A stretch of DNA of 64,000 nt, taken from positions 1-64,000 of the IMG/VR virus record IMGVR_UViG_3300035701_000016, one strand, 5' to 3'. Positions within the stretch are counted from its first letter, which is position 1, and every line of letters starts with the position of its first letter. The stretch is from a virus. Below the pieces are notes generated by a model, which saw only the letters and a list, made by a program, of their open reading frames with translations, was not told where the DNA came from and ran no database searches. Shown piece after piece: positions 1 to 38,607 of this stretch. The position numbers and the translations under genes were made by a program.

Positions 1-162
1 AAAGTTTGGAAACAGCAGGTAAACTCAATTATTGAGGATACTATAGGTCTCAGCTGTGATGACCTGGAAGATTGCTGTTACCGTGACTGGTTTGATGACG
101 GCGTGTCTCCCAAGACTGCTGCCAAGCGTGCCATTCAGAATTCAGGCGGTTCGGTAGCGTGA
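1..162 (+). CDS. Partial small phage protein (3' end), possibly DUF5419-like
   Basis: Frame 1 is open from the window edge: KVWKQQVNSIIEDTIGLSCDDLEDCCYRDWFDDGVSPKTAAKRAIQNSGGSVA*. Family resemblance is from memory only. Confidence 0.55.
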   Translation, partial: KVWKQQVNSIIEDTIGLSCDDLEDCCYRDWFDDGVSPKTAAKRAIQNSGGSVA

Positions 163-193
163 TAGCATTACCATATCAATTACCATCAAACAC

Positions 194-222
194 TTGTCAT
201 TACGCTTCATTCGTGCTACTAT
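194..222 (+). promoter_or_regulatory. Sigma70-type early promoter P1
   Basis: TTGTCA-17nt-TACTAT with extended TG; spacer TTCATTCGTGC is shared with other promoters. Confidence 0.75.
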
Positions 223-297
223 AAATGTAGCGGCAGCCTGCCGCGAAACGACTAGGGGTTTGAATACCCCGCCAGGACAAACCTAAAGGAGGTTTAC

Positions 298-759
298 ATG
301 TCCACACAAGCTCGGTGTTTAGTTTGTAAAAAGCCACTCACAAGTGGCGATATCGGAGGCACCTGCTCTGCTCACCAGGGCAAGATCCGCCTCTTCGCCA
401 ATACGGCGACCATTGTGCCTGAAGGGTTCCTCAAGATGTCCGTTGTTTGCCGTGCCTACGAGAAGGCTGGTTTCACCACCCGCCAGATCGTCAAAGCCTG
501 CGGCGGCGACGCCTGCACGGAGCAACCGTTCGGCGGAGAAGATCCCAAAGGGCTGTTCTACGTGACCTACGTTGGCAACCGGAAATACTTGGCTCCCGCC
601 ATTCTCACCACCGGCATGGAGCAGTTCAAGAAAGCAACTGCAGCTCCGGCCGAAGCTCCCAAGGCTTTGGTTTCCGGCAAAGACAACGGCAAGGAAGTCA
701 ACGCAATTGCCGTCGCCCTCCAGACCAAGGTTATCAAGGCTCCGGTCTCCGTCAAGTAG
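298..759 (+). CDS. Early protein, paralog of 5812-6330, possibly winged-helix DNA-binding
   Basis: SD AAGGAGG; shares PEG.L.M..VC....AG......A.GGD.C...P...F.V.YVG.RKY..P with 5812-6330. Confidence 0.75.
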   Translation: MSTQARCLVCKKPLTSGDIGGTCSAHQGKIRLFANTATIVPEGFLKMSVVCRAYEKAGFTTRQIVKACGGDACTEQPFGGEDPKGLFYVTYVGNRKYLAPAILTTGMEQFKKATAAPAEAPKALVSGKDNGKEVNAIAVALQTKVIKAPVSVK

Positions 760-761
760 CC

Positions 762-806
762 ATCCAGTATTAGTGAGGTGGGCAAGCGAATAGCCAGCCC
801 ACCTCA
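762..806 (+). ncRNA. Conserved downstream RNA element (ATCCwGTATTAGT + hairpin with GAATA loop), copy 1
   Basis: TGAGGTGGGC/GCCCACCTCA stem; second copy at 6347-6392. Confidence 0.55.
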
Positions 807-830
807 AACCATTTGTTCAAGGAGGTTATC

Positions 831-1031
831 ATGCCTTTGGATCCCAAAGTTTTAGCAGAGTTTGAAAACTCTTGCGACGAAGCAGATAACGATCTGCAAC
901 TCAAGTACGAAAAAATGACTCCTGAGCAACGACAAGGAGCCGACACCTTCCTCGCCTGGTACAAGATGTGGTTTGGGAAATGCACCTACACTCACATCGG
1001 CAAGCATCTCAAGGAGTTTAGGTTTCATTAA
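831..1031 (+). CDS. Hypothetical protein
   Basis: SD AAGGAGG before ATG at 831. Confidence 0.7.
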   Translation: MPLDPKVLAEFENSCDEADNDLQLKYEKMTPEQRQGADTFLAWYKMWFGKCTYTHIGKHLKEFRFH

Positions 1032-1230
1032 TTTGCAAGAAATCGGCGGACGCAGGGTGTCCTCCGCACCCTGAATCCGGATTTGGAGCCTACCGTCTTC
1101 CCCGCTGGCGGTAGGCTCTTCTAGTTTCCCTTTGCTGCGAGTCCCCGTCCTGCCACGAATATCCACTGGCAAGGATGCGAATTCCCAGGAGTGGGAAACA
1201 CCACTCACAATACCACAAAAGGAGGTGTTT

Positions 1231-1506
1231 ATGAGTCTTGAAGAATATAGTTCTTTTGATCTCTACCCCTGTCCAATATGCGGTCAACTGCATGACGAAT
1301 TCGAAGAGGCCTTGATCTGCTGGGATGACTACAATGATACCACCACGATGACTATTTATCTCTGGACTGAGTTTCCGTTCAAGATGGCAGAGTTTAGCAT
1401 GATCATGGCACAGGCCAGGGAAATTCGTGGAAGAGTCACGAGCTATACCACATGGGGATCCACAAATTTCTTGATAAGAACGTCAATTGTGGTAGAATCT
1501 AATTGA
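1231..1506 (+). CDS. Hypothetical protein with CxxC motif
   Basis: SD AAGGAGG before ATG at 1231; CPICG. Confidence 0.65.
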   Translation: MSLEEYSSFDLYPCPICGQLHDEFEEALICWDDYNDTTTMTIYLWTEFPFKMAEFSMIMAQAREIRGRVTSYTTWGSTNFLIRTSIVVESN

Positions 1507-1521
1507 CATGGTATCAAATAC

Positions 1522-1550
1522 TTGTCACAAAGGCTCATTTGTGCTACACT
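1522..1550 (+). promoter_or_regulatory. Sigma70-type early promoter P2
   Basis: TTGTCA-17nt-TACACT, extended TG, spacer CTCATTTGTGC. Confidence 0.75.
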
Positions 1551-1601
1551 ATAACTAGGTAGAACTATATCTGGAAACGATTACAAAGAAAGGAGGTTGC
1601 A

Positions 1602-1703
1602 ATGTTTCTTGAAGGACTTTGGTACGCATTCTGCTTATTTATTACGATAGCTTTGCTGGCATCTCTGTGGGCAGCCTTCAGCCAGCCCTATCATCGTAAA
1701 TGA
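1602..1703 (+). CDS. Small membrane peptide (33 aa)
   Basis: SD AAGGAGG; MFLEGLWYAFCFIITIALLASLWAAFSQPYHRK. Confidence 0.6.
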   Translation: MFLEGLWYAFCLFITIALLASLWAAFSQPYHRK

Positions 1704-1790
1704 TTCCTTGGTTGCATCCTACCCTAGTCCTCCTGGACTACGGTAGGCTAGAGCTAAGGAAGCTCTAAATTATCTAAAGGAGGTATCAAA

Positions 1791-3311
1791 ATGGAAAACC
1801 GAAAGGCAGAGGTTACGGTAGATCCGTCACTGTTCAGTATGGTTGCAAGAACCATGTACAGCTCAGATCCTACCATAATTGTTCCAAGAGAACTTCTGCA
1901 AAATTCTGTGGATGCTTGCAAGAGAGCGGGCGTCATACCAGAGATATCCATGATCATAGAAACTCACTGGTCTTCTACAGAAGGTGAGAGTTGGACATCC
2001 ATTGTTTGTGAAGACAATGGTTGTGGCATGGATCAGGATGAGCTGGTTGACAAATTCTTGAAGCTCGGTGCGTCTTCAAAACGTGGAGATAGCCAGTCTA
2101 CCGGAAAGTTCGGGATTGCTAAAGCGGCAATCATGTCCGGTAAGGATTGGTCTGTTGAAACTAACGAAATAGCCGTAAGTTTTGAAGATGTGCGAGAAGG
2201 CAATCTTGTAAGAGATCTTCCGGAACCCAGAGTAGGAACCAGAGTTTATGTGATGCTAGATAGATATTGCTACAGCAAACAGACAATTGTTCGTCTGATT
2301 GAATCCTCAGAAGTAGATATCAAACTTATCCTCACGGAACGCTCCGATACCTGCTACAATATTGAACACTGTGGGCTTCTGGTCAATCCTCAGAATGAAG
2401 TAGTTCTTGTAGAAGACAAGTTGTGGAAAGGTACATCCATAGAAAAGCTTCCGTCAAACGAAGCAGATGGATATACTTTTGTTCGCTTGAATGGATTGAC
2501 CCAGTTTGAATTAAAAGGCCACTGCTCGGAAAGAGAAACCAATCTTCTCATAGATATGTTTCCTTCTACCGCAGATCCTGGAAATGACGAGTATCCATTC
2601 ACAATGTCCAGAGAAAATCTTCGTGGATCTAGCAAAGACAAGATCGACTCCTGGGTTGACGAGTGCAACAGAAATCCGTACACTACCGATTCCTTGCGAG
2701 AGGATCTTACCAACCAGGAAAAGCAGAATTTCATTCCAGGATATTCTCTGAGGGGCAAACGATCCAGACTTCATGGTGGAACTGAAGAGCAGGATAATGA
2801 TCAAGATAACATTAGAGATTCGAAAATAGTAGATGCTCTAAGAAAGATCAAGAATTATCCCTACGGTACAGATGCCATGAAGTTTATTGACGAAAATGCC
2901 ATCTCTCCTATAATTCGTCTTGACAGATATACGGTAACAGATGAAACCTTCCCTCGTGATTCTAAGATCATGCAGGCATGGGCTATGATGCTAACGTATG
3001 TAGTTGACAATGAAATAAAGTTCGGAGTTGGTTTGATCGGTGCATCTCTAACGACATCTCAGTTAGACACATCTTCCGGAATGTATTTCTTCTCAATCAA
3101 TCCTGGCTTTGTCTGCTTTGAGAAAACTCCGTTCGGTAGAGCTTTGGCTATGTGGGGAATGGCTTCTCATGAAGCTTCTCATCTGCATATTCAAAACCAT
3201 AACGAAAGTTTCACGATGGCAGAGTTGATGGTTCAGCATGAATCTGCGGATGATATCTATCCAATAGTAGCTAAGGTTGCGAGAATTCTATCCGGACCTG
3301 AGTTCTTCTAG
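1791..3311 (+). CDS. GHKL (HSP90/rIIA-like) ATPase with C-terminal HExxH metallopeptidase-like motif
   Basis: RELLQNSVDA (N box), EDNGCGM (G1), GKFGIA (G2), GT (G3); C-terminal HEASHLHIQNHNESF. Confidence 0.8.
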   Translation: MENRKAEVTVDPSLFSMVARTMYSSDPTIIVPRELLQNSVDACKRAGVIPEISMIIETHWSSTEGESWTSIVCEDNGCGMDQDELVDKFLKLGASSKRGDSQSTGKFGIAKAAIMSGKDWSVETNEIAVSFEDVREGNLVRDLPEPRVGTRVYVMLDRYCYSKQTIVRLIESSEVDIKLILTERSDTCYNIEHCGLLVNPQNEVVLVEDKLWKGTSIEKLPSNEADGYTFVRLNGLTQFELKGHCSERETNLLIDMFPSTADPGNDEYPFTMSRENLRGSSKDKIDSWVDECNRNPYTTDSLREDLTNQEKQNFIPGYSLRGKRSRLHGGTEEQDNDQDNIRDSKIVDALRKIKNYPYGTDAMKFIDENAISPIIRLDRYTVTDETFPRDSKIMQAWAMMLTYVVDNEIKFGVGLIGASLTTSQLDTSSGMYFFSINPGFVCFEKTPFGRALAMWGMASHEASHLHIQNHNESFTMAELMVQHESADDIYPIVAKVARILSGPEFF

Positions 3312-3320
3312 GAGGGCAAG

Positions 3321-3416
3321 ATGAATACTAAGAACGATAGCAGATATGAGTTTATACTCATCATGCTGGCTTTGATTCTGTTGTGCTACATCGGCTGTCT
3401 GTCGGTGCATCCATGA
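3321..3416 (+). CDS. Small membrane peptide (31 aa)
   Basis: SD GGAGG; MNTKNDSRYEFILIMLALILLCYIGCLSVHP; ATGA-coupled to the next gene. Confidence 0.5.
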   Translation: MNTKNDSRYEFILIMLALILLCYIGCLSVHP

Positions 3417-3619
3417 ACGCATCAGACAAACCAGACCCAATTCTGCCAGCGGATCTGATCTACCGTGCCTTCAAGGACAAGCACACTGGATTGAACGGTA
3501 TGCCAGTCCCACTCTATAAGATCGGTCTTGAGACCATTACCAAGAGTGAATATTTCCGTAGGGTACTAGTCCTCAAAGTAGCGGCTAAACGAGCCGAACG
3601 AGAAAGAGGGATTCAATGA
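3413..3619 (+). CDS. Hypothetical protein
   Basis: ATGA-coupled on both sides. Confidence 0.6.
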   Translation: MNASDKPDPILPADLIYRAFKDKHTGLNGMPVPLYKIGLETITKSEYFRRVLVLKVAAKRAERERGIQ

Positions 3620-3825
3620 GCGGTGTAGCAGTCATAGCAATAAGAAAACAAGATCTCGAACTCCTTATAGAAAGTCTAATGATGGAATCTACGGCATTAG
3701 GTCACTTTGTAGATAATAAAGTGGGATCTGCAAAATCAATCACTGATGCCAAGGATAAATTTCGAAGAAGTATATTTCTACGGCAGGAGTTAGAGTCCCA
3801 AAGAAGATTGTGGTTTATTGACTAG
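3616..3825 (+). CDS. Hypothetical protein
   Basis: Coupled ORF with SD GAGGG. Confidence 0.6.
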   Translation: MSGVAVIAIRKQDLELLIESLMMESTALGHFVDNKVGSAKSITDAKDKFRRSIFLRQELESQRRLWFID

Positions 3826-3831
3826 ATATTC

Positions 3832-4250
3832 GGCCGGCGGAGTAGACGCAACGAGATTTTTACATCTCCTTTTTCGTAAGGACAGGGCAGGGCTGTCCTC
3901 GGCCACAATCCGGAATAAGCACGGAAGGGTAGCGTGCAGAAATCAGACTTCAATCTGGTTTTCTGACTTGATCAGTCATCTGGTTCAATTCCAGAATTCC
4001 GGTCTCGGTAGAACTGAAGACACGTGGAAATCGTAAGGTGTAACAGAGGTAGAAAAGCGGTATCCAATCCTGCTGAGTACATCGGCGACGGTAGGGATAT
4101 AAGAACCCTCAACGTGAGCGATCCACGATAAAGGACACCAGAAGGTTCTACCGGACTTGATGCGGAAGTCTCTGACTCCAAGGAGCGGAGTATGGTGCGG
4201 TCTCTGACGAGAGACTTTTACTTGATGGTGTAATTTGCACACCGCATCAA
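3832..4250 (+). ncRNA. Structured non-coding RNA block of four consecutive closed domains
   Basis: Closing helices GGCCGG/TCGGCC, CCGGAAT/ATTCCGG, CGGTAGAAC/GTTCTACCG and TTGATGC/GCATCAA; no credible ORF. Confidence 0.55.
3910..4003 (+). ncRNA. Atypical tRNA-like RNA with TCA in the anticodon-like loop
   Basis: Acceptor CCGGAAT/ATTCCGG; D stem GCACG/CGTGC; extended anticodon stem with 6-nt loop CTTCAA; variable arm TGACT/AGTCA; T arm TCTGG-TTCAATT-CCAGA. Confidence 0.65.
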
Positions 4251-4272
4251 TTATATAAGAGGAAAAAAAATT

Positions 4273-4494
4273 ATGTCCAAAAAGAAATCAAATTTGCGAA
4301 GAAAAGATCCACCATGTCTGGGATGTCTACATATGTCAGAATTAGTATGTGATATTTTAGGTATAGTGGATGAAGATTCACTGAAGATATGCAATAGAGC
4401 AGGTTACAAAGAAATTCGTAGTCTAAATAGTAGGACTGGACACTATCATGAGGGTGCTTACTGGACATCAAAAGATAGAGGATATGGACGTTAA
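4273..4494 (+). CDS. Small basic Cys-containing hypothetical protein
   Basis: SD GAGG; CxxC. Confidence 0.55.
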   Translation: MSKKKSNLRRKDPPCLGCLHMSELVCDILGIVDEDSLKICNRAGYKEIRSLNSRTGHYHEGAYWTSKDRGYGR

Positions 4495-4512
4495 ATCAAT
4501 TTATGTCGGGTA

Positions 4513-4541
4513 TTGTTCCGTCGGTTCATTTGTGCTATTAT
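4513..4541 (+). promoter_or_regulatory. Sigma70-type early promoter P3
   Basis: TTGTTC-17nt-TATTAT, spacer TTCATTTGTGC. Confidence 0.75.
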
Positions 4542-4590
4542 AAGTGTAGGCGCATAATGCCACGAAACGACTATACCAAAGGAGGTTACT

Positions 4591-4992
4591 ATGAATGATG
4601 ATCCGAGTAAAGCATGGGATCGCTACTGCCAGCAGCAAGAGGATATAGAGCTCTGGGAGAGTGTTGTAGACGTTGGTGTTGTCATGCAGGAGAGAGGTAT
4701 CGATTTCTCTCCCATAGATGCCAGTAACGACTTCATCTGGTTTATCAACGCCAAGATAACTGACTGCAAATTCTCCACCGACGTTATTACCGGAGAGCGT
4801 GTTTGCATCAACCACCCGACTCTCAAGGCTCCCTGGAACAGAAGTGATGGAGAGATTGACTTAGCTGCTACCGCTGATGCTGTTGTTGAAGCTATCTGTG
4901 TTGCTTCGGGACCTAAGACTCCACCTTTTCCTGAGAATTGGAGTTTACCTCAATCACTTCCGAATCCTCCAGATAACTACGATCCTGCCTAG
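4591..4992 (+). CDS. Hypothetical protein
   Basis: SD AAGGAGG. Confidence 0.75.
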   Translation: MNDDPSKAWDRYCQQQEDIELWESVVDVGVVMQERGIDFSPIDASNDFIWFINAKITDCKFSTDVITGERVCINHPTLKAPWNRSDGEIDLAATADAVVEAICVASGPKTPPFPENWSLPQSLPNPPDNYDPA

Positions 4993-5063
4993 ACTTCCAA
5001 TCTGTTACTGCTCCCCACCCCGAAAAGAGGTGGAGGGCAGGAAGGAGAAAGGAGGTAATTATA

Positions 5064-5441
5064 ATGTCAAGTGAAATAACCAAACTCGAGTCTTATGATG
5101 TAGGCCACCGTATCGTAGTTATGGATACAGATGGCAAGACTGTTCTGGTGATTATCAGAGTAGCTAGATTGAGCAATAGAGAGGTCAATTTGGATATTAG
5201 TTTCTCGGACGGTAGAACGGTGGAGTTTATCCAACAATGGGATAACGGTAGACCAAATCTATCTCAACTGGTGATTGAAGAGATTGTCTCCAGTGTTACT
5301 AACGGATCTCTTACCGTTCAGTCTTCAACTCCTAAGTTGAATAGTGTGATATATCAACAGGAAATTATAGACTCCGACCGAGATCAGAATAGACCTCAAT
5401 ATGGTAACGATGAAGAACGACTCTGTCCAGACTGTGACTGA
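5064..5441 (+). CDS. Hypothetical protein
   Basis: SD AAGGAGG. Confidence 0.7.
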   Translation: MSSEITKLESYDVGHRIVVMDTDGKTVLVIIRVARLSNREVNLDISFSDGRTVEFIQQWDNGRPNLSQLVIEEIVSSVTNGSLTVQSSTPKLNSVIYQQEIIDSDRDQNRPQYGNDEERLCPDCD

Positions 5442-5697
5442 CAGTCCTGGCTATGTAGGTCGTGATAAATTTGTCCAGCTCTGGGATCAGCCAGATGGCT
5501 ATGACTATCTCATGGATCCCAAGCGACGTCGTCGAGAAAGGAGATTTACATCACGGGAAGAAGCTTTACGATACCTTCGGGAAGAAATGTACTATGCGAC
5601 TGACGATATGCGATTCTTCTATTGGTTTCCATATTCTGATGACCTGCCATATCATATCTTAGACGGGTCGCCAGTCGAAAAATTGAAACCAAATTGA
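5410..5697 (+). CDS. Hypothetical protein
   Basis: Overlaps the previous ORF; start uncertain. Confidence 0.55.
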   Translation: MKNDSVQTVTDSPGYVGRDKFVQLWDQPDGYDYLMDPKRRRRERRFTSREEALRYLREEMYYATDDMRFFYWFPYSDDLPYHILDGSPVEKLKPN

Positions 5698-5710
5698 AGA
5701 AAAATAGGGC

Positions 5711-5739
5711 TTGCATTAGTCGTTCATTTGCTGTATAAT
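5711..5739 (+). promoter_or_regulatory. Sigma70-type early promoter P4
   Basis: TTGCAT-17nt-TATAAT, spacer TTCATTTG. Confidence 0.75.
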
Positions 5740-5811
5740 GTATATGTAACTGGGGAGCGACACATTCTAACCCCGACAAAAATCTTGGTTCAAAACGAAA
5801 GGAGTTTCAAA

Positions 5812-6330
5812 ATGGGTGACAATCCTGTTGTAACTGCTCCGGCTGTTGAGCAGAAAGTCGTAAAGGTAAAAGTGGCGAAACCGCCAAAAGAGGCCAAGCC
5901 GCCTCGCCTCGGTAAAGGTTGGACCGAGGAAAAATGGAAAGCACGTCTGGCCGAACTTACAGTCCCTGCAATTCCCGAGGGCTGGCTCAACATGGCCGAT
6001 GTCTGCAAAAAATTCAACGATGCTGGAGTTAAGATCTCCCGTGTGGTTTCGGCCAGCGGTGGTGATCGGTGTGCTAACGAACCCTGGGACGCTGTATTCC
6101 AGGTCAAGTACGTGGGTGGACGTAAGTATCAGTCGCCCGACGTCCTGGTGAAGGGTATGGCTCTTCTGAACGACCCCACATTCCATCCGGTCGTGAGAAT
6201 TGGTCGCAAGAAAGCCACCAACCCCGACGGTACGACCAAAGAACCTGCTCCTAAGGGAGTTAAGGTGAAGGTTGAAATGGACACTAATAAGTCCAAAGTT
6301 TGGGTTGCTCCGACCAGCGATAAGAAATAA
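5812..6330 (+). CDS. Lys-rich early protein, paralog of 298-759
   Basis: SD AAGGAG before ATG 5812; shared core domain; KVVKVKVAKPPK/KGVKVKV basic arms. Confidence 0.8.
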   Translation: MGDNPVVTAPAVEQKVVKVKVAKPPKEAKPPRLGKGWTEEKWKARLAELTVPAIPEGWLNMADVCKKFNDAGVKISRVVSASGGDRCANEPWDAVFQVKYVGGRKYQSPDVLVKGMALLNDPTFHPVVRIGRKKATNPDGTTKEPAPKGVKVKVEMDTNKSKVWVAPTSDKK

Positions 6331-6346
6331 CTGCTCCACCTGCGTG

Positions 6347-6392
6347 ATCCTGTATTAGTATCCCCACTAGCTGAATAAGCCGGTGGGGATAC
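6347..6392 (+). ncRNA. Conserved downstream RNA element, copy 2
   Basis: ATCCTGTATTAGT + GTATCCCCAC/GTGGGGATAC stem with GAATA apical loop. Confidence 0.55.
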
Positions 6393-6416
6393 GCCATTCT
6401 AGAGGAGAATGGGACT

Positions 6417-6701
6417 ATGATGGATAAAAAGACATCCAAGCATGATCTAATGGCAACCTACAATCTCTTAAAGGAAGAGGCCAAAACTAACTCCCACATT
6501 GAAGAAGGTAGGCTGAATAGGGCTTTGGGCATAGCCATGAGAAAAGAGTCGTATGAAAAATACTACACAACTTTTACAGGTTGCACATGTCCTGATCAAG
6601 CCAACAGATCTCAATTTATCTGCAAGCATCGCCTATCCTTCATGTTGGAGCATGGTGATGATATTAGCCTCATGCTATTTGAGGGAACTCCAATTTCTTA
6701 G
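6417..6701 (+). CDS. SWIM zinc-finger protein
   Basis: CTCPD...CKH motif. Confidence 0.75.
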   Translation: MMDKKTSKHDLMATYNLLKEEAKTNSHIEEGRLNRALGIAMRKESYEKYYTTFTGCTCPDQANRSQFICKHRLSFMLEHGDDISLMLFEGTPIS

Positions 6702-6709
6702 GAGGGATT

Positions 6710-6964
6710 ATGTTAATAAATGACGTTAAGAAAGGTATGAAGATCCGTACCAAGGATGGAATTACTGGTACGATGATGGATAATCAGAAGGGTATTATTA
6801 GAACTATACAGATTCCGATGATCTTTGATTCACGGCAGATGGATATAGGAAGCTGCTATGTTGATACCATCCGGTGGGTCATGGTGAAGAATGAATGGGA
6901 AAAAGTTGAGCTGTCTGAGGCTAATCGTAAACAGCTCTCCAAAATTCCATCAAGTTTTCGGTAG
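6710..6964 (+). CDS. Hypothetical protein (SH3-like beta fold suspected)
   Basis: SD GGAGG; DVKKGMKIRTKDGITG. Confidence 0.7.
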   Translation: MLINDVKKGMKIRTKDGITGTMMDNQKGIIRTIQIPMIFDSRQMDIGSCYVDTIRWVMVKNEWEKVELSEANRKQLSKIPSSFR

Positions 6965-7283
6965 GAATAACCGCAGATTCAGGATATACTTTTGGCTGAT
7001 TCTAATATTATGGGAAATAGTAATATGCTCAACCCCAAGGCAAGATGTCCGTACGGATCTGCCCCCTCCAAAAAGTACATTAGTCGCTACTGCCACGACT
7101 AATGACTGTCATAACAAACTGGATCCTCTCATATATAGTTTCCTAGCCGGTAATGGAGATAGAGGTATCTACGATGCGGCTCTTAGATGCAAGGATCCAG
7201 AAGTTGCGATAAAAGTAGAATGGGGGTTGGCGAAGAGAGATTATTTAGTTCTTCAGAGGTTGATAAAAAGACAGACTCCATGA
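6891..7283 (+). CDS. Hypothetical protein with hydrophobic segment
   Basis: Open frame; start uncertain; converges on 7183-7830. Confidence 0.4.
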   Translation: MNGKKLSCLRLIVNSSPKFHQVFGRNNRRFRIYFWLILILWEIVICSTPRQDVRTDLPPPKSTLVATATTNDCHNKLDPLIYSFLAGNGDRGIYDAALRCKDPEVAIKVEWGLAKRDYLVLQRLIKRQTP

Positions 7284-7830
7284 AATTTATGGAGTCTTTC
7301 TTTATTCTCTTGGCAAGACTTTCAATTGTCCCTTCTTCCAGACCTACGGTTTCATCAACACATGGGTCCAGAGATTGCAGATATCCATATGCGTGATCAC
7401 AACATATGTGTTCAGACTCTGTACAGTTGCGATAGTCAGGAGAAAGATCTCTTCTCCATAATCTTGAGTCACAGGGTCTACCGTTGTCTAAATCGAGTAA
7501 TGCTTGCAGTATCGTCTGGAATAGTATTTGTCTAAGAAATTCCCCATCACAATCAGTTTCTCGGCGTAAACCTGATGATGGACTTATTCCTCTCATCAAG
7601 TACCATAGATCTACTCCAAGGTTGGGACTACCGTAGAATGGAGAGATCAGATCTTGATCTTTGAGGTCATGCAGAATATCCAGGGGAGAATTCCAGCAGT
7701 TCACAAAGTTGGTTATATCTGTATGAAACGTTACTGTTCCTGCGGCAGCATTCACCATTCCTCTATTAGTTATTATCCAACAATGAAGATAGTTTAGCCT
7801 GACAGATCTCTTTTGTTTCCAGTTCAGCAT
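7183..7830 (-). CDS. Hypothetical protein
   Basis: SD AAGGAGG upstream on the minus strand; 215 aa. Confidence 0.65.
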   Translation of the reverse strand: MLNWKQKRSVRLNYLHCWIITNRGMVNAAAGTVTFHTDITNFVNCWNSPLDILHDLKDQDLISPFYGSPNLGVDLWYLMRGISPSSGLRRETDCDGEFLRQILFQTILQALLDLDNGRPCDSRLWRRDLSPDYRNCTESEHICCDHAYGYLQSLDPCVDETVGLEEGTIESLAKRIKKDSINFMESVFLSTSEELNNLSSPTPILLLSQLLDPCI

Positions 7831-15325: not shown

Positions 15326-15355
15326 TTTAACTCCTTACTAACAGATTTGTTACAG

Positions 15356-15429
15356 TGTCCCCGGTGAGACTCGAACTCACAACCTACAGATTAGAAGTCT
15401 GTTGATCTATCCAGTTGATCTACAAGGAC
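15356..15429 (-). tRNA. tRNA-Arg (anticodon TCT)
   Basis: Canonical cloverleaf: GTCCTTG/CGGGGAC, GATC/GATC D arm, ACAGA-CTTCTAA-TCTGT, GTGAG-TTCGAGT-CTCAC; CCA not encoded. Confidence 0.95.
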
Positions 15430-20124: not shown

Positions 20125-20875
20125 CATGTTGTTCACATCTTTCGATGTGCATGGACTATACCTTCAATTTGGTAAATCTTCCACTAGAGTCTACGCAACT
20201 GTGATTAAGTTGATGACAACTTTTGCACAAGAGAGTAAGATTGGAGACGTCGTTATTTGCATGATCTCCATCCTCATGATGAACACACCATAAGTTAGTC
20301 ATCTCAGGATCTGCAATTATTTCAGTCAAATCCTTTCCACAATATTCGCAGTTGAACTTTTCCATGGAAGACAACTTTATTTCGCGGAACTTTGTTACTC
20401 CGCCTTTCCAGTTGTTGTTGAGTTCTCCTGACTGATATCTACCAGTCATTCCTGTATAGGAAGAATCCGTAATATATCGTGGAAGACTACAAGTTTTACA
20501 GATAACTTGCCAATATCTTACTGGTTTGAATTCATTTCCGCATCTTGAGCAAATAGCTGACTCGGGAGCTTTCTGATGGACTACTCTGCAGTTAGGACAA
20601 TTTTTCACAGTTTGATAAGAAGGTACGAACATCTTGCCACATTTTCTGCATGATATTTCAGGGAATTTTCCATCAGAATCTAGTTTCATAACTTACCTCA
20701 TGCTCGCTTGGTTATACCGATTGGTATCCCAGACCGTAACCGTTCTGGTTACGCTGTGAGTCTCTGAACCATTTATTCTCATTCCTGAGAATTCTGGCTG
20801 CTGATTGCCATGCGACTTGTCGTTTAGGTTTCCAGCAATTGAGCGAGTTTTATTTTGGCCTGACTTTACAGGTTG
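20125..20875 (-). mobile_element. Group I self-splicing intron (IA2-like) in the DNA polymerase gene
   Basis: P AATTGCTGGAAA, Q AATCAGCAG, R GTTCAGAGACT, S AAGGTATAGTCC, P1 TTTGGT/GCCAAA with U.G, P9 CACATC-GAAA-GATGTG, terminal G; splicing restores KTISFG|LIYG. Confidence 0.92.
20156..20689 (-). CDS. Intron-encoded HNH endonuclease with N-terminal Zn fingers
   Basis: CxxC repeats; NNNWKGG; CEYCG...VHHEDGDHANNDVSNLTLLCKSCHQLNH. Confidence 0.9.
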   Translation of the reverse strand: MKLDSDGKFPEISCRKCGKMFVPSYQTVKNCPNCRVVHQKAPESAICSRCGNEFKPVRYWQVICKTCSLPRYITDSSYTGMTGRYQSGELNNNWKGGVTKFREIKLSSMEKFNCEYCGKDLTEIIADPEMTNLWCVHHEDGDHANNDVSNLTLLCKSCHQLNHSCVDSSGRFTKLKV

Positions 20876-22279
20876 ACCAAAGCTTATCGTTTTAGACCAC
20901 TCTCTGTGAACTTGATTCATGTCATAACCACAATCACCCCAGACCTTCAATGCAATTTCCAGATGGACATCTTTACCTGCCAACAAAGCATCCAACATGA
21001 AGGGATCTCTGGATAGAACTCCAAACATTCTCATTTCCATCTGCTTGTAATCTATGCTTAGGAATAGCATACCCTTTCTTGGGATGATAGCCTTTCTCAT
21101 GTTATACTCATCGGTTCTTTTCACCGAGCCGGTATATACTGATTGAGTAAACCTACCGCGAACATTAGAGGCTACATTCTGCAGATTTGGTTTGGAGGAA
21201 CTTAGTCTACCGGTTCTTGTACCGGTGATATTGAAGCTGGTATGCAATACTTCATCGTCATCTATCTGATCTAACCATTTGAGATAATTACGTCTCAACT
21301 TATCCGCTTCTCTTAGTGCAGATATCAATTCACCAAGGGGATGATGGATTTTTTCGGTGAGAATAAATGTAGCTGTGCAAGTTGACTTATACTTGCCAGC
21401 ATCAGCAAATCTTGATCTATCCACACCATCTGCATCAGCAAATGGATTCTTGGGTTTGGGAATTCCTAGACCTGCATAGATTGCGTTACTAAGTTGCTGA
21501 GGACTACGCCAGTTGAACTCGTTACCGCACGAATCCCATAGGGTTTCCTCCATGGTTTGAATATGTTCATGCAATCTGTGCTCAGCCCAATCTGTAAAAT
21601 CTACGTCGAGACTAACTCCATGTTCCTCTGCATCGTACAGAGTTTTTATGTAGTTCATATCCTTCCAGAATAAATCTTCCAAACCTATTTTGCATAAGGT
21701 GGGAAAAAGTTTTTCGGCAAGTTGATAGGTGACCATACAGTCATTGGCGCAGTACGCACTTACTAGATGAAGAGGCCAGTCCCATATTTTGGTTCTTGCA
21801 GGTCCTTGATCAACAAAAGATCTCTTGGATGACGATCCCAGAAATCTTGTTTCAGCATCTTTCAGATTCTTCTTATATCTACTGTCTAACAGATGGATCA
21901 TAACGGTAGTATCCATTATAGTCCAGCCACCCGCACGAGGATCCATCTTCATGAAGTGAAGATCGAATTTGGAATTGTGCATGAGTATGGTGGTATCAGA
22001 TGATAGACTGTTTACTGCATTGATTACATCTATTCTGTCTTTGTCATCAAGAGTGGGAATATATCCTATCTTACCGTTGGATTTGCAGAAGAATCCAACT
22101 CCTATGATGTGATTTTGCCACGGATTGAGTCCCGTGGTTTCCGTATCCAGTGCAACCATTCTACCCTCACAGGACATCAAATCCTGGATGGTAGCAATAT
22201 AATTATGATCTACGCTTAGAACAGGATAATCGTCATCCTGTATTCGAGCCAGCTGAGTTATCGGGACAATTTCGTCCAT
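20876..22279 (-). CDS. polA: Family A DNA polymerase, exon 1 (3'-5' exonuclease + polymerase)
   Basis: LDTETTG, HNSKFD, YCAND, TRTGRLSS..PNLQN, DYKQMEMR (motif A); SD GGAGG before ATG 22279. Confidence 0.92.
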
Positions 22280-22721
22280 CTGTAGTTTCCTCCACATGAG
22301 TTATTATGACATCCACCTGAACTAATTTTGTTTCATGAAGTTCTATCTCACGACCACAATTTTCACAGGTGAATTGATGAAGTTTTCCTCCGCATATTAT
22401 ATGCTCGGAATCGCAATACCTACATTTCAAAACAATCATTATTTCGTCATCCTTTCTTAATCTGACATTATTCTTCAGCAGATTGTAGCTCATTTGCAAC
22501 ATTTTGACGGTCCATCCTAACTCATAATTTTCACGAGTATAGTCAGACAGTGCTTCTCTAACATTACCTATGGCGGATTCCAATTCTTTTATTTCCGTTT
22601 CTTTTCTATCAACCATATATATCAGATCTTGATAGGATTTTATAGCAGACTCAGGAATTTCTCTTCCGTCTGCCATCAATGCACAAGTATCGTGTATTGC
22701 TTCCTTCAGGTTTTCTTTCAT
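22233..22721 (-). CDS. Hypothetical coiled-coil + Zn-ribbon protein
   Basis: CRYC...CENC. Confidence 0.65.
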   Translation of the reverse strand: MKENLKEAIHDTCALMADGREIPESAIKSYQDLIYMVDRKETEIKELESAIGNVREALSDYTRENYELGWTVKMLQMSYNLLKNNVRLRKDDEIMIVLKCRYCDSEHIICGGKLHQFTCENCGREIELHETKLVQVDVIITHVEETTDGRNCPDNSAGSNTG

Positions 22722-27248: not shown

Positions 27249-27692
27249 CTAACCGCTGAAGGTTACTTTTCCTGGCTTGGAAGCATCAGCAGGAATACCA
27301 GTGTTTCCACCAGAAAGAGCAGGCTTCTGGGGAGCTTGAGCTCCTGGAGCAAGATAGCGATTGATTTCTGATCGTTCAGTTCCTTCGAACTGACCGGTGG
27401 TAACTACTCCTCGGAAGGTTGATCCGACGAACTTCTCACAACTCCACTCACCCTTGCGGGGCGCACCGATCGCGTCGAGAAGAGCATCAACCTTGAATCT
27501 TGCCTGGGGAGTAAGAGATACAAACATGGTAATTGTTCTTCCCTGATCCTCACCTGCATCCTGGCAAGTGGCGGTAAGAACATACATCTCGTTACCTGTT
27601 CCGCTCAACTGCTCCTTGGAGGCTGTAATCTTGAAGGTATGAGTTCCTTCTGATACCAAACCTGACGTTCTATTGAGATCTAACTTAGGCAT
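27249..27692 (-). CDS. Putative single-stranded DNA-binding protein (DUF669-like)
   Basis: EGTH.F.I...S.TGNEM; follows the Sak4-like gene. Confidence 0.7.
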   Translation of the reverse strand: MPKLDLNRTSGLVSEGTHTFKITASKEQLSGTGNEMYVLTATCQDAGEDQGRTITMFVSLTPQARFKVDALLDAIGAPRKGEWSCEKFVGSTFRGVVTTGQFEGTERSEINRYLAPGAQAPQKPALSGGNTGIPADASKPGKVTFSG

Positions 27693-27695
27693 AGT

Positions 27696-28445
27696 CTAAC
27701 TCCTTATAGATGACTGACTCCAATACTTGTAGAGTTCCTCATAAGTCGGATCCTCTACGATTGGTGGAAGTAACCAAGAACGATCCTTGGTCACGTGGTT
27801 CACTGCATCAAATGTCATAAATCTTGTCTTGCTGTTGTTTCCTCCTTCCGAACTATCCTTCTTGTCAAGATAGCCAATTTCATCCATCATTCGACTCAGA
27901 TTACGAGCTGTCTGCTTACCTGTGAGTTGAGGTTGTACGGGATCAGTTTCGTATGCTCTGGGAGCAACCTGAGCAATTAAGATGACATTCAAGGGAAGAC
28001 TCTTCAAATCTCTTATCTTCTTCTCAAAGTCATCCATCATCTTCCCATAATCGGCCAAAGCTGGTAAACTATCATATGGTCTTCTAACCTGGAAGGTATT
28101 CACCACATGTCTCATGGTAAGATACTGTAACTCATTAAGAGAATCCAACACAACAGTTTTAAACGGATGCTGTCCTGACATCAACCAATCTAAAGACTGA
28201 AGAAGAGATTCCCAAGAATCTATATCCAATCTGTGTACTGTTCTTCTTACCGAGGCCATACCATGATCTATATCCAGAAATACAGGCGTAGGCCATGTTG
28301 ATGCGAATACTGTTTTACCCACACCACTTTCTCCATACACTAGGAATTTAACTTGCTCAGGATTGAATTTTCCTTCCATAACTGAGAACTTCTCTTCCAG
28401 AGAAACTGGAATTTCAAACGGATCCATCATATTAGGTTCTGCCAT
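27696..28445 (-). CDS. Sak4-like AAA_24 ATPase / single-strand annealing protein
   Basis: YGESGVGKT, LDIDHG, TVVLDS, TKDR. Confidence 0.85.
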   Translation of the reverse strand: MAEPNMMDPFEIPVSLEEKFSVMEGKFNPEQVKFLVYGESGVGKTVFASTWPTPVFLDIDHGMASVRRTVHRLDIDSWESLLQSLDWLMSGQHPFKTVVLDSLNELQYLTMRHVVNTFQVRRPYDSLPALADYGKMMDDFEKKIRDLKSLPLNVILIAQVAPRAYETDPVQPQLTGKQTARNLSRMMDEIGYLDKKDSSEGGNNSKTRFMTFDAVNHVTKDRSWLLPPIVEDPTYEELYKYWSQSSIRS

Positions 28446-28447
28446 AG

Positions 28448-29290
28448 TTACTCCTCTGCCTTCTCTTGAATAGGCTCTTCCACTCTAGGAATTATTGGAA
28501 ACTGCCTCAAAACAGGTTCCGGATTACCGTCATCATTTATTGCCAGACACGCTCCGTAGAAGGGACAATCCCAACTGCAATCCTTGGTTTCGTTACGGTA
28601 GATGAAACCTCCATTGGTATGAAAGTTTGCCATTTCAGTAACCTGATTGGCTACTTCTCTTTCTATAGCAACCAGACCCTCTTGATTGCGATATACCTTG
28701 GTTCTCACTACCGGCTCTGTTGCAGCTATCCCACCTTCAGCAACCCTGATTACATTGAACAAAACTCCCCTGACGTCTATTCCCAACTTGTAGGCTGCCA
28801 ACAGATACAGGCTCATTTGGGGATCCAGATCTATATGACCCAGGGAGACACGTTTATTGAACTTATGTTCCATAAGCCACAATGACTCGCCTACTCTGAC
28901 GACACCATCAATGTAGCCTATGACTCGTTGACCACCGATTTCAACTTCGAATTTCTGCTCGAGAGATATAATCTCTTCAATACTCTCGTGCATCCTTGCC
29001 CAGTCAAAGTATCTTCGAATGATCAGCTCGGTAAGTTCCCAGTAATCGGAACAATCGTCTCCCGTATTTATTTCGTACTGATTGTAAACCTCAGCAGCAG
29101 ATTTCATGGCAAGTTCGTCTGCTTCCTCGGTACAACCATTCCCGTACCAGGTCGCCAAAGCCGCATGACCGGCTGATCCACGATTCTGTCCAGGTCCTGA
29201 GAAGGGTGCATAGTTATCTACATACTGAAGCTTGTACTTATATCTGCAACGTCTCCATGTGTACATGGAAGAGTGCGAGAATGCTCTCAT
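28448..29290 (-). CDS. Cas4-like PD-(D/E)XK exonuclease
   Basis: SHS...C; GSAGH; GYIDG..EHK; QMSLY; CSWDCPF..C. Confidence 0.85.
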   Translation of the reverse strand: MRAFSHSSMYTWRRCRYKYKLQYVDNYAPFSGPGQNRGSAGHAALATWYGNGCTEEADELAMKSAAEVYNQYEINTGDDCSDYWELTELIIRRYFDWARMHESIEEIISLEQKFEVEIGGQRVIGYIDGVVRVGESLWLMEHKFNKRVSLGHIDLDPQMSLYLLAAYKLGIDVRGVLFNVIRVAEGGIAATEPVVRTKVYRNQEGLVAIEREVANQVTEMANFHTNGGFIYRNETKDCSWDCPFYGACLAINDDGNPEPVLRQFPIIPRVEEPIQEKAEE

Positions 29291-35647: not shown

Positions 35648-36511
35648 TTACCTCGGACCGATAGCCATCCAGAATACGACTCTGTCAGTATCCACTGACT
35701 GTTTGATATCAATTACAAATGTAGTCGTAGTTATAGTATTCACTCCGAAAGAAACATGAGTAACGTCAGACGAAGCAAAATTTCCCACCGTAATCAAAAC
35801 AATGGGAGCAAAAGCAAATGCCTCCGGAAATGTTACAGTAGCAGTTCCCAAATGAGTTCCGTTATCTACAACAACTGCCTTGGATCCGCATTGAATTAGG
35901 CATCCTACAGGAGTGTAGTCAGTATCTCCTTCAGTACTCCAAACGGTAGCAGATCCACCCTGTCTCTTGTCAATTATAGGAGCCCATGCAGAAGCTAAGC
36001 CGTCAGATTTTATGATCTGACCATTGGATCCTACGGGGCTTATATCTCCTACGGATACCTCGGTTGAGAAATTGCAGAAATCTCGAGCGTCTAGAGTCAA
36101 GGCACGAACTCCGGCAGCAGTCACAGTAGCTCTAGCAATCTCAATCTCCCAAGTTGCTCCAGGAGTATGCGTAGTGGCTACATATCCTGCGGCATTCGTG
36201 AGAAGAGCGGCTCTTACCGTTTGAGTTCCAAAATCTTTTCTCAGAACTACTGTATGATAATATATTCCTACTGCCGGAGTAGTAAGAGCTACAGATAGAG
36301 GAGCATCATTCACATAGATCTTTCCGTCAACTAGAGCAACTCCACTCTGTATTACTATATTGGATCCTACCAGAGATGGTGCTAATTCATTTAGTTGACC
36401 TACAAGAACTCCTTCTGTATCGAGATCTCGTTGAAACAGATATCTGAAGATATCTGAGAATTGATCGTCACTGTAAGCGGGTCCATTCCAATAGTATGAT
36501 AACTCAGCCAT
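35648..36511 (-). CDS. Minor tail/baseplate protein, paralog A
   Basis: GVALVDG..YVND; VTFPEAF..AP.V; WMAIG. Confidence 0.75.
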   Translation of the reverse strand: MAELSYYWNGPAYSDDQFSDIFRYLFQRDLDTEGVLVGQLNELAPSLVGSNIVIQSGVALVDGKIYVNDAPLSVALTTPAVGIYYHTVVLRKDFGTQTVRAALLTNAAGYVATTHTPGATWEIEIARATVTAAGVRALTLDARDFCNFSTEVSVGDISPVGSNGQIIKSDGLASAWAPIIDKRQGGSATVWSTEGDTDYTPVGCLIQCGSKAVVVDNGTHLGTATVTFPEAFAFAPIVLITVGNFASSDVTHVSFGVNTITTTTFVIDIKQSVDTDRVVFWMAIGPR

Positions 36512-36520
36512 AATAATCTC

Positions 36521-37666
36521 CTACGTATTCATATCCGAGAATGTAACGGATAAACTATCAATAGATGATTTCACATCGTTACCGATCTCAACTACTCTCA
36601 TGGTAACAGATTCTTCGTCATCTATCATAGTAATTTTATCTCCGAGAAAGAAATGTTTGCCATAACAACATGAAGGTTGCATAAGAGGAGTAAAAGTAAC
36701 TTTCTTCTTCGGAGACTCCTCATTCAGGACACCATCTCCAAATGTTTCCATTTCTGATTCAAACCCATCCTGAGATCTAGATATTTCTATTCTATTCCAC
36801 GGAGAGTCCAGTACAGAAGGTTTGTATCTTGCAATCTTTTCTCTGGTAGATTCATCCCCACTTCCCAGAACAGTAATGACATTATGTTCAGATATTCTGT
36901 CATATGTATTGTTAAGATCAGAGATATTTCCTCTGTCAAGAGAGAATATGACAGGAAAATTTCCTGCCGTATTCAAACCAGTGGTATGATCTAATCCTGA
37001 AGTAGTTCTATTTTCACCCAATTGATCTGTATAGGTTTGAAATACAAATTCGTTGGAAGTCCAATCGAAGTATACTGCAAAATCTATAGATGAGAAGTCG
37101 GCTATTTCTGACACTACATCAAGCAGATTAGCGTAGGCTCTGTCACCTTCCCATACAATTCCAAGTCCGGTAGTAGGTTCTACACGAAAGTTAGGAAGAA
37201 CACCCGATATCACTCTACCATTTGCTACAGTAGCTGAAGGACCGCAGTTTTCTTCCACATACTCCTTCATAGCGGTCTCAGAATACTGGTATTTATAAGA
37301 TCTAATGGTAGCGGCAGGATAATTTATAATTGTTCTAGCTAGTAAATCATTCAATCCTACCCCGGAACTCTCGAATGTAACCACTCCAGTACTACTCACA
37401 TCTCTTGATCTTTTTCTATGGAATCCTAGAAATTCTTCGTAGAAATCAATACCAAGTCCCGGAAGAGATCTTAGTACTTGAATAGTACCATCTAGTTCGA
37501 ATAGAAATCTTCTCTGATCATCTCCGGATATTTTGAAGGAATATGATCCAACGCCATTTACCTGCTTCTTGTACGAAAGATATTCCCAGGAATCAAATAC
37601 AGCCACTACATTAAAGGACTGATTCCTGAGAACAACTTTGCATTTTGAAGCAATAGAATCCATCAT
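36521..37666 (-). CDS. Siphovirus Gp37-like minor tail (hub) protein
   Basis: NGVGSY, VIFSLDRGNI, YGKHFFLGDKIT; follows the distal tail gene. Confidence 0.75.
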   Translation of the reverse strand: MMDSIASKCKVVLRNQSFNVVAVFDSWEYLSYKKQVNGVGSYSFKISGDDQRRFLFELDGTIQVLRSLPGLGIDFYEEFLGFHRKRSRDVSSTGVVTFESSGVGLNDLLARTIINYPAATIRSYKYQYSETAMKEYVEENCGPSATVANGRVISGVLPNFRVEPTTGLGIVWEGDRAYANLLDVVSEIADFSSIDFAVYFDWTSNEFVFQTYTDQLGENRTTSGLDHTTGLNTAGNFPVIFSLDRGNISDLNNTYDRISEHNVITVLGSGDESTREKIARYKPSVLDSPWNRIEISRSQDGFESEMETFGDGVLNEESPKKKVTFTPLMQPSCCYGKHFFLGDKITMIDDEESVTMRVVEIGNDVKSSIDSLSVTFSDMNT

Positions 37667-38607
37667 ATTCCTATGTATCTAACGTAGTATTCAAGAGTGA
37701 CGGTAGAAGTAATGGTTGTACCGGAACCCGATATGGTAAAATCGTTACGACCACCGGTAGAAGCTGGTAGTGGAGCCTCCGGATCCGGAGCTATGTGGAA
37801 AGTGGTTATACTACTTTCCTCAGTTATAGATCCCATAAGATTTATGCCGAGATCATTGACGACCGATTTGTTACCGTAGGGTAGATCAATATAAATAGTC
37901 TCTCCAGACATAATAGCATAATTCAACTCAATAAATTCACCTGTGGTAACGTTAGTGATCTTGAATCCAGTCATAGGTCCTGTGATTATTATCTTGGGAT
38001 AAGATAACCAGGATCCAGGATATATCACGTATTTTGAGTCAGAGTATGATTCTTCTGACAGAGTAAATGAGAAGGTGAAAGGAAGAATCCAGAATGATGA
38101 CAATGCCGGATCGTATAGTAATGACCATGACAGTCGGTCAATATCCGGATCAAAGAATACGGGATCATGAGCTACAAATCTTAGAGTCTCCGCATAACCG
38201 AACTCATCCCATCGATCAAGATTTCTTGCATTGAATATTGGACCCTGCTCTATGAAAACATAAATATCTCTCATGGAACCGTCAGGAAATTTCTTTCTGA
38301 GAACTCCTGTATTCATCTTATGGATAAGATTTCTGTTGGGTCTGATGGCGTTAAGTAGAGCAGTTCTATTGATCCAGAACTCATCTCGTGAACAACTATT
38401 CTGTCTTACCAGCATTTGTATTGTTCTCTTACCAAGTCTATAGTCTAGAACAGTTTCTCCATGCTGATATGGACCCTGTTGAGTAATATACTCAATAGGT
38501 GGCATTCCCAAACCCTCTTCGGTAAGAAGGAATCTGGTACTGGTATCGAAGTGGTACTCCTTGCCGTCAGGAGATATGTATGAGGTAAATTCTAATACAT
38601 CTGTCAT
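37663..38607 (-). CDS. Distal tail protein (Dit)
   Basis: GLGMPP...GP.QHG, DPVFF, YPKIIITGP; directly after the tape measure gene. Confidence 0.8.
   Translation of the reverse strand: MTDVLEFTSYISPDGKEYHFDTSTRFLLTEEGLGMPPIEYITQQGPYQHGETVLDYRLGKRTIQMLVRQNSCSRDEFWINRTALLNAIRPNRNLIHKMNTGVLRKKFPDGSMRDIYVFIEQGPIFNARNLDRWDEFGYAETLRFVAHDPVFFDPDIDRLSWSLLYDPALSSFWILPFTFSFTLSEESYSDSKYVIYPGSWLSYPKIIITGPMTGFKITNVTTGEFIELNYAIMSGETIYIDLPYGNKSVVNDLGINLMGSITEESSITTFHIAPDPEAPLPASTGGRNDFTISGSGTTITSTVTLEYYVRYIGI

Follow-up and report, generated by a model that had tools for sequence, protein, structure and literature searches.

What might a gene with the shape of a tRNA do if its build does not suit decoding? 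This question is raised by a 94-nucleotide (nt) element at positions 3910 to 4003 (+ strand) of a stretch of viral DNA, here called the window, that is 64,000 nt long and consists of bases 1 to 64000 of the complete 75,103-base pair (bp) virus record IMGVR_UViG_3300035701_000016, which has direct terminal repeats. Reads holding this sequence come from sediment metagenomes, and the virus is an uncultured sediment phage whose products include a family A DNA polymerase, an AEP primase, a SNF2 helicase, a tape-measure protein and several HNH endonucleases. The element is a real, non-canonical and apparently unique tRNA-shaped gene. We see about an even chance that it is a tRNA mimic with a function other than decoding, encoded where an early operon ends and serving as a decoy or as a processing or stability element.

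Structure of the element

The element is present in one copy in the genome and has the following parts.

3910-4003 (+), the whole tRNA-shaped RNA gene, 94 nt including discriminator U4003; class II layout with a 7/5 acceptor/T branch
3910-3916 (+), acceptor 5' strand; 7 bp with 3996-4002, first pair C1-G72, U at position -1, pair probabilities 0.88-1.0
3919-3937 (+), D arm; 5-bp stem and 9-nt loop GAAGGGUAG containing GG
3939-3962 (+), anticodon-type arm; 9-bp stem (3939-3947 with 3954-3962) and 6-nt loop CUUCAA (3948-3953)
3964-3978 (+), variable arm; 5-bp stem and 5-nt loop, pair probabilities 0.59-0.84
3979-3995 (+), T arm; 5-bp stem and loop UUCAAUU, with G53-C61 present

RNAfold gives the same cloverleaf as minimum free energy and centroid structure (-33.9 kcal/mol, z -3.84, matched by 0 of 200 shuffles), and this cloverleaf is retained when the entire 447-nt intergenic region is folded. 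All 31 of its 31 pairs are Watson-Crick or G-U. The acceptor and D stem are separated by A8 and A9, a single linker base lies on either side of the anticodon-type arm (towards the D arm and towards the variable arm), and discriminator U73 is followed by CUC, so that CCA is not encoded. The four extra pairs of the anticodon stem form with probabilities of 0.58-0.91, and the A-U pair that closes its loop with 0.86. Opening that pair costs ~1.1 kcal/mol and gives an 8-nt loop, and a 7-nt loop forms in no register. Since a contig from a second sediment sample, in a different study, spans 3743-4044 without any difference, the 6-nt loop is not an assembly error. A sequence-only reading of this DNA had described a 7-bp acceptor, a good T arm, a 5-bp D stem, a 6-nt CUUCAA loop, a variable arm and no CCA, and all of these are present in the RNAfold structure; it had also given the anticodon stem ~10 bp, and the stem is indeed unusually long, its exact length being 9 bp. 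The variable arm was considered as a spare anticodon arm, which its loop of 5 nt, not 7, excludes.

To score the tRNA frame, we required a T arm with five perfect pairs around GTTCRANYC and, directly after it, a 3' strand with perfect pairing to a 7-mer located 44-79 nt upstream. In dinucleotide-shuffled genomes such a canonical T arm and perfect 7-bp acceptor come together 0.007 times per genome, and once a D arm with GG is also demanded, none of 300 shuffles yields a site. Two sites in the real genome, and no more, have the tRNA frame, namely the element and the phage's tRNA-Arg(UCU) gene. The tRNA frame of the element is therefore real and far beyond chance.

Family models do not recognize the element as a tRNA. 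Under default settings ARAGORN does not call it, the sole call in the phage being tRNA-Arg(TCT) at 15355-15429, and Rfam gathering thresholds agree. With the -ps90 option ARAGORN does call the locus, with a wrong anticodon arm; about two such calls are made per shuffled genome, so this relaxed score proves nothing. The Rfam tRNA model RF00005 (threshold 29 bits) gives no hit on the element even at E<=10, and the best match in the Rfam clan is the selenocysteine tRNA (tRNA-Sec) model RF01852, at 17.9 bits and E 1.4 against a threshold of 47. Canonical tRNA features present in the element are a 7-bp acceptor stacked on a 5-bp T stem, a T loop fitting GTTCRANYC, and G18 and G19. Those lacking are a 5-bp anticodon stem with a 7-nt loop and the U8-A14 core pair, as position 8 is A and the D loop begins with G. 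Transfer-messenger RNA was rejected as an identity, because the tmRNA mode of ARAGORN finds nothing and there is no Rfam hit. ARAGORN- and Infernal-type scoring, which the sequence-only reading had proposed as a check, thus leaves the element below every family threshold. The view that this is not a normal decoder is borne out by a loop of 6 or 8 nt, a stem 4 bp too long, A8 in place of U8 and rejection by both ARAGORN and Rfam.

A candidate non-decoding tRNA mimic

The element appears to keep the shape by which enzymes recognize tRNAs, including a 12-bp acceptor/T minihelix, a canonical T loop, G18 and G19, and U at position -1. Its helices seem to have been lengthened (the D stem from 3-4 to 5 bp and the anticodon stem from 5 to 9 bp), and its anticodon loop cut to 6 nt. 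With a stem of 9 bp and a loop of 6 nt, normal decoding in the A site is excluded. Because no pair is broken and two helices are extended on both strands, these defects are not those of decay, and because TGA is not recoded in this phage, as described below, a suppressor is not needed.

The genomic setting is that of a structured intergenic region. The element lies in the + strand early region, in a 447-nt gap between an open reading frame (ORF) that ends at 3825 and one that starts at 4273. Its surroundings are as follows.

1791-3311 (+), gene for a RIIA-like GHKL ATPase, an early gene 5' of the element
3383-3619 and 3616-3825 (+), two small overlapping ORFs with no Pfam or PHROG family match
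3832-3904 (+), closed three-hairpin RNA domain upstream of the element; z -2.65
4006-4154 (+), closed RNA domain with a 10-bp terminal helix, downstream of the element; z -2.51
4157-4250 (+), four-way-junction domain that holds the terminator-like site; z -3.27

The gap thus contains four separately closed RNA domains, the cloverleaf among them, joined by linkers of 1-5 nt, and each folds better than its shuffles (z -2.5 to -3.8). The first domain includes a weak hairpin with a U-run (about 3853-3876) and a GC-rich hairpin (3879-3898). The cloverleaf begins ~85 nt past the last early-operon ORF and ~200 nt ahead of the sole + strand terminator-like site within 1-7300, a stem at 4199-4216 followed by a U-run. 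None of the four domains (3832-4250) has an Rfam match. Together these domains probably form the 3' end of the early operon. Two overlapping coding possibilities were considered for this region (ORF 3818-4036 on the + strand and ORF 3985-4242 on the - strand); their products look low in complexity and they have no ribosome-binding site, and the region was taken as non-coding. At 4250-4279 on the - strand there is an 11/12 match to a sigma-70 promoter. It shares sequence with the ribosome-binding site of the gene that starts at 4273 on the + strand, and its orientation is antisense, towards the structured RNAs; this match may be due to chance. No toxin-antitoxin family was detected in the ORFs that neighbor the element.

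In the mechanism that we propose, the operon transcript would be cut at the cloverleaf by host RNase P and by RNase Z or an exonuclease. Such cuts would release a very stable 94-nt mimic, which might receive a CCA tail, and would part the flanking RNAs from each other. The mimic would then act as a decoy and not as an adaptor, with an arm that resembles that of tRNA-Arg(UCU) minus one base and that could occupy a host anticodon nuclease or modification enzyme.

Resemblance to the anticodon arm of tRNA-Arg(UCU)

The arm that the decoy would imitate belongs to the only canonical tRNA of the phage.

15355-15429 (-), tRNA-Arg(UCU); 66.3 bits, CCA not encoded
15387-15401, its anticodon stem-loop CAGACUUCUAAUCUG, with a 7-nt loop

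The core of the element's arm, CAGACUUC-AAUCUG (3944-3957), is identical in 14 of 14 bases to this stem-loop minus U36. As a gapped pattern it occurs at exactly two sites in the window, the element and tRNA-Arg(UCU), with 0.00 expected from 100 shuffles. Outside the anticodon arm the two genes are unrelated. AGA makes up 549 of the 903 Arg codons (61%) in large ORFs, which makes tRNA-Arg(UCU) the phage's most critical tRNA. As this tRNA is also without an encoded CCA, the missing CCA of the element is not a defect. A related phage (G002) keeps a tRNA-Arg(TCT) with a different anticodon stem.

Perhaps, then, the element is a dedicated anticodon-arm decoy that is made early and traps a host factor attacking or modifying tRNA-Arg(UCU), for example an Arg-directed anticodon nuclease; stated so specifically, we think the proposal unlikely. 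A decoy against anticodon nucleases, or a processing tag, had been suggested by the sequence-only reading, and the shared arm lends the decoy idea a little indirect plausibility. Phages do possess countermeasures that involve tRNAs, such as the repair of PrrC-cut tRNA-Lys by T4 and the neutralization of PARIS by tRNAs of T5 (PMC11455837). If it is a decoy, the element would share with these cases the use of a phage tRNA-type molecule against an attack on one anticodon arm, here that of tRNA-Arg(UCU). The known examples are functional replacement tRNAs that decode, whereas the element cannot, so it would work as a decoy or inhibitor. We know of no Arg-specific nuclease of the host.

Several observations weigh against a functional mimic. 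The element has no homolog in any of our searches, and hence neither covariation nor purifying selection speaks for it. No convincing + strand promoter was recognized directly upstream of it, and the phage encodes no tRNA repair enzyme, CCA-adding enzyme or other recognizable tRNA-related protein suggestive of a conflict centered on tRNAs. The match to the tRNA-Arg arm comprises only four stem pairs and common loop bases, and the AGA/UCU end of the stem recurs in tRNA-Leu(UAA) genes of Paceibacterota; the probability of coincidence is therefore about 1-5%, which is not negligible. Finally, the perfection and extension of hairpins can arise neutrally, through template switching in quasi-palindromes.

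Homolog searches and the possibility of an inactive relic

The alternative that survives best is that the element is an inactive relic with no present function, namely a class II tRNA gene (tRNA-Leu-like, or a former suppressor) that this lineage acquired and that the deletion of one base of its anticodon loop recently killed. We regard this as a serious rival, though a less likely one. Its restricted distribution is as expected of a relic. The phage's polymerase is common to ten IMG/VR records at 28-64% identity, two of which also carry the RIIA-like gene. Neither ARAGORN nor a custom cloverleaf scan found a counterpart of the element in seven full phage records related by their polymerase (0 of 7), including two with a syntenic RIIA-like gene, and in the relatives and syntenic regions a blastn search and a covariance model of the element (R1) were both without a match. 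There was likewise no blastn match in the GenBank phage collection. Exact and degenerate patterns in IMG/VR and patterns in JGI metagenomes returned unrelated matches only; one locus that matched three times (L061) proved to be an unrelated repeat. The best score of R1 among 80 metagenome loci was 14.5 bits (E 1.3), and the genome has no internal repeats of the element. As for tRNAs in the relatives, only one has tRNA-Arg(TCT) and one more distant record has tRNA-Met. Among 5.8 billion proteins, no homolog of the RIIA-like protein exceeds 45% identity, and there are 26 homologs at lower identity. No run holding the element was found among the listed public RNA runs. With no homolog there is no covariation and no evidence of purifying selection, and as far as present data show the element would be specific to this lineage.

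Other properties also fit a relic. Nothing shows conservation or expression, Rfam scores are below threshold, and several departures from consensus coincide (A8, U73 on a Leu-like body, and the 6-nt loop). The phage tolerates non-coding DNA, with other gaps of 200-440 nt present elsewhere in its genome. The perfect helices would, in a relic, reflect its youth or the neutral correction of quasi-palindromes. Yet decay yields mismatches, and all 31 pairs are intact. Moreover, four pairs have been added to the anticodon stem and one to two to the D stem, which needs coordinated changes on two strands (for the four additional pairs, a chance of about 2%), and the element stands within a run of four well-folded closed domains (z -2.5 to -3.8). 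The identity of the sequence in two samples from different studies also argues against decay, weakly so as the whole region is identical.

The body from which a relic, or a mimic, might have been made is best described as a tRNA-Leu-like class II body with lengthened helices and trimmed loops. With bacterial tRNA-Leu, as in the UAA and CAA isoacceptors of Paceibacterota, the element shares a long variable arm, a 7/5 acceptor/T branch and a canonical T loop. Its D loop, GAA-GG-UAG, resembles GAAU(U)GGUAGA of the Paceibacterota genes, and AGA/UCU pairs close a loop beginning with CUU in both. Unlike tRNA-Leu, the element has U73 instead of A73, A8 instead of U8, a D stem of 5 bp instead of 3, an anticodon stem of 9 bp instead of 5 and a loop of 6 nt instead of 7; there is no unpaired base between its variable and T arms, and it falls below the Rfam tRNA threshold.

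When 185,579 species genomes were scanned for the combination of the 6-nt loop, its three closing pairs and a T loop, three matches emerged. One of these is a tRNA-shaped gene in a Candidatus Paceibacterota metagenome-assembled genome (L165, contig JALOQM010000001.1), which ARAGORN calls by default with a two-base "anticodon" (6-nt loop) and which scores 40.8 bits with the Rfam tRNA model. It makes up most of a ~130-nt insertion (6290-6421, - strand) in a 23S rRNA gene, as an 84-nt tRNA-Leu-like cloverleaf with a 6-nt CUUCAA loop. This 23S rRNA gene (3934-7747) measures 3814 nt against a model of 2925 positions, and the insertion comes right after model position 1205. That position corresponds to the helix-45 intervening sequence (IVS) site named in PMC4990558. 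The insert could be a processing site of the RNase P/Z type that fragments the rRNA; we found no paper on a tRNA-like insert in Paceibacterota 23S rRNA. Cloverleaves of this kind thus also stand in a place for which processing seems the one plausible role, a possible parallel that speaks for a functional mimic.

A model built on the Paceibacterota gene (R2) retrieves ordinary tRNA-Leu(CAA/UAA/UAG) genes in 143 of 151 genomes of the same order, and scores the phage element at 21.4 bits (E 3.5e-4). In the opposite direction R1 gives no match on the Paceibacterota gene, and because that gene was found by demanding a 6-nt loop, it is an analog and not a proven homolog of the element. An origin of its anticodon arm from that genome's own tRNA-Arg(UCU) was considered and rejected, as it is not derived from it.

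A second case is a 90-nt tRNA called by ARAGORN in default mode at 1403-1492 (- strand) of a 2791-nt metagenome contig (L130). It has an 8/5 branch like that of tRNA-Sec, a 6-nt CUUCAA loop and a long variable region, has no Rfam hit at E<=0.1, and is surrounded by small ORFs only. The sporadic presence of 6-nt-loop tRNA-like genes on unrelated scaffolds, as in these two cases, is what occasional deletions would produce, and so favors a relic.

Separately, the spacing of 18 nt from anticodon-type motif to T loop recurs with a 5-6-bp stem at L021 (6986-7059), L022 (2987-3060) and about a dozen marine metagenome loci (for example L026, L029, L030, L040, L044 and L054). In L021 and L022 the element concerned is rich in AT and 74 nt long; its T arm is perfect and its acceptor has 7 bp, but it shows no recognizable anticodon hairpin. 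ARAGORN makes no call at any of the marine loci, and L021 and L030, the two that were run against Rfam, give no hit.

Stop codons and the possibility of decoding

Could the element instead be a working but unorthodox decoder that changes some phage gene products, as an opal suppressor, a +1 frameshifter (with an 8-nt loop, like SufJ) or a doublet or -1 reader (with a 6-nt loop)? In favor of such a role, the loop holds a U like U33, followed by UCA and then a purine, and the 8-nt form of the loop is only ~1.1 kcal/mol above the 6-nt form. The combination of U73, UCA and a long variable arm also recalls selC* tRNA-Cys (PMC5389517). We nevertheless consider a decoding role very unlikely, for reasons that lie both in the phage's genes and in the RNA itself.

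The 77 non-overlapping ORFs of at least 100 amino acids end in TAA (27), TGA (25) and TAG (25), and the phage is on genetic code 11. When TGA is read as sense, neither coding density nor the length of large genes increases, with readthrough tails of 0-33 codons after the 25 genes that TGA ends. No selenoprotein gene with an in-frame TGA is indicated, since no gene is lengthened by this reading. Stop-separated in-frame ORF pairs on the gene strand involve TGA once, TAG four times and TAA three times, and hence show no enrichment of TGA.

The TGA case is ORF 5401-5697, whose stop codon is in frame with the next 210 codons, as a target of suppression would be. The segment that follows (5700-5815, + strand) contains a near-consensus sigma-70-type promoter, with CTTGCA, a spacer of ~17 nt ending in TG, and TATAAT, and further on AAAGGAG and, at 5813, an ATG; a simple promoter scan did not list this site. 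The TGA at 5697 is thus followed by a strong promoter, a Shine-Dalgarno sequence and a start codon, which imply two separate genes and argue against suppression. From the same promoter it appears that the host RNA polymerase probably reads E. coli-like promoters.

The four TAG cases are pairs of long frames split by a single in-frame TAG, at 27249-28484, 35648-37678, 47222-50008 (- strand) and, in genome coordinates, 65478-68975 (- strand), with halves of, for example, 472 + 455 and 449 + 715 codons. They are probably adjacent genes that share a frame by chance, and no tRNA(CUA) was found in the phage. The family A DNA polymerase ORF (20156-22297, - strand) ends in TAA after 534 amino acids, and one codon further on there is an in-frame, Cys-rich HNH-type ORF of 177 amino acids. 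The Pfam match of the polymerase covers only the first 216 of 381 profile positions, which together with the HNH ORF makes the gene look split by a homing-endonuclease insertion. A polymerase gene interrupted by UGA was thus rejected, the break being TAA followed by the HNH ORF.

Features of the RNA likewise argue against decoding. A 9-bp stem puts ~4 bp too many between loop and elbow for the molecule to reach across the decoding and peptidyl-transferase centers, A8 and the missing A14 take away core tertiary pairs, and the thresholds of the tRNA and tRNA-Sec families are not reached. Compared with tRNA-Sec, the branch is 7/5 instead of 8/5, the D arm has a 5-bp stem and a 9-nt loop instead of 6 bp and 4 nt, UCA lies in a 6-nt and not a 7-nt loop, position 73 is U instead of G, and the score is 17.9 bits where at least 47 are expected. 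The sequence-only reading had labeled the loop UCA and Sec/opal-like. This label is not supported, given the use of TGA as an ordinary stop, a branch that is neither 8/5 nor 9/4 and the RF01852 score. The reading of UCA is itself insecure, because the loop can equally be derived from UCU by loss of U36, or from UAA by a change at position 35 and loss of one A. A selenocysteine tRNA or opal suppressor was therefore rejected on the lack of TGA recoding, the architecture and the Rfam score.

Frameshift suppressors such as SufJ and sufD have 8-nt loops on a 5-bp stem, with a normal body, and act at defined shifty sites. The element's alternative 8-nt loop is like that of SufJ in having its extra base on the 5' side; unlike these suppressors the element has a 9-bp stem and an abnormal body, and no shifty sites are evident in the phage.

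An even weaker idea, that the element serves recombination or attachment (as an attP core derived from a tRNA, or as the target of a mobile element) and is not an RNA gene, draws on the status of tRNA genes, selC in particular, as classic integration sites and on the phage's several HNH homing-endonuclease ORFs, and is highly improbable given that the complete 75-kb genome has no tyrosine integrase (PF00589; serine recombinases were not searched for), that it has direct terminal repeats and its own replication genes, that a full cloverleaf is present and not merely a 3' half, and that no bacterial genome of the scan carries a near-identical tRNA.

Comparison with other irregular tRNA-like RNAs

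Returning to a non-decoding mimic, we compared the element with systems in which cloverleaf RNAs depart from the usual architecture. MALAT1 mascRNA and the TMER RNAs of murid herpesvirus 68 are cloverleaves with crippled anticodon arms that are not aminoacylated and that provide cut sites for RNase P and RNase Z. Like them, the element keeps acceptor/T and D/T-loop features and would lie within a longer transcript beside other hairpins. Unlike it, they are eukaryotic or belong to a eukaryotic virus, and no sequence relationship exists; processing of the element would be a further point of resemblance.

The nearest kinds described are the allo-tRNA and selC* tRNA-Cys families, which look like tRNA-Sec, have an 8/4 or 9/3 acceptor/T branch as their defining trait, and carry 7-nt loops (PMC5389517, Mukai et al. 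2017). The element resembles them in a long variable arm, a lengthened anticodon stem and an origin in sediment or phage. In selC*, U73 goes with a UCA or GCA anticodon; the element has U73, but its "UCA" sits in a 6-nt loop. It differs further in its 7/5 branch (an eighth acceptor pair would be A-A) and in its 9-bp stem. Some irregular tRNAs from soil and sediment metagenomes are inactive in translation and have been proposed to be regulatory RNAs (PMC5389517). In the open-access text that we searched, no tRNA-like gene of a phage is described that combines an anticodon stem of 9 bp with a loop of 6 nt. Nothing relevant came from a literature search on the TOTE primase system.

Implications

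Phage tRNA genes are now seen as weapons against host defenses that cleave tRNAs, and to our knowledge all anti-defense phage tRNAs are working tRNAs. If the element is merely a dead tRNA, the finding is an ordinary one, and a single sequence without relatives carries limited weight. If it is a decoy, it would be the first inhibitor of a tRNA-targeting defense to work as an RNA decoy, would protect the tRNA that reads 61% of the phage's Arg codons, and could help to find the host nuclease that it matches. As a processing or stability module, it would represent a counterpart, in a bacterial virus, of cut sites of the mascRNA/TMER type. The insert in Paceibacterota 23S rRNA hints that non-decoding cloverleaves may be more widely used as RNA processing sites.

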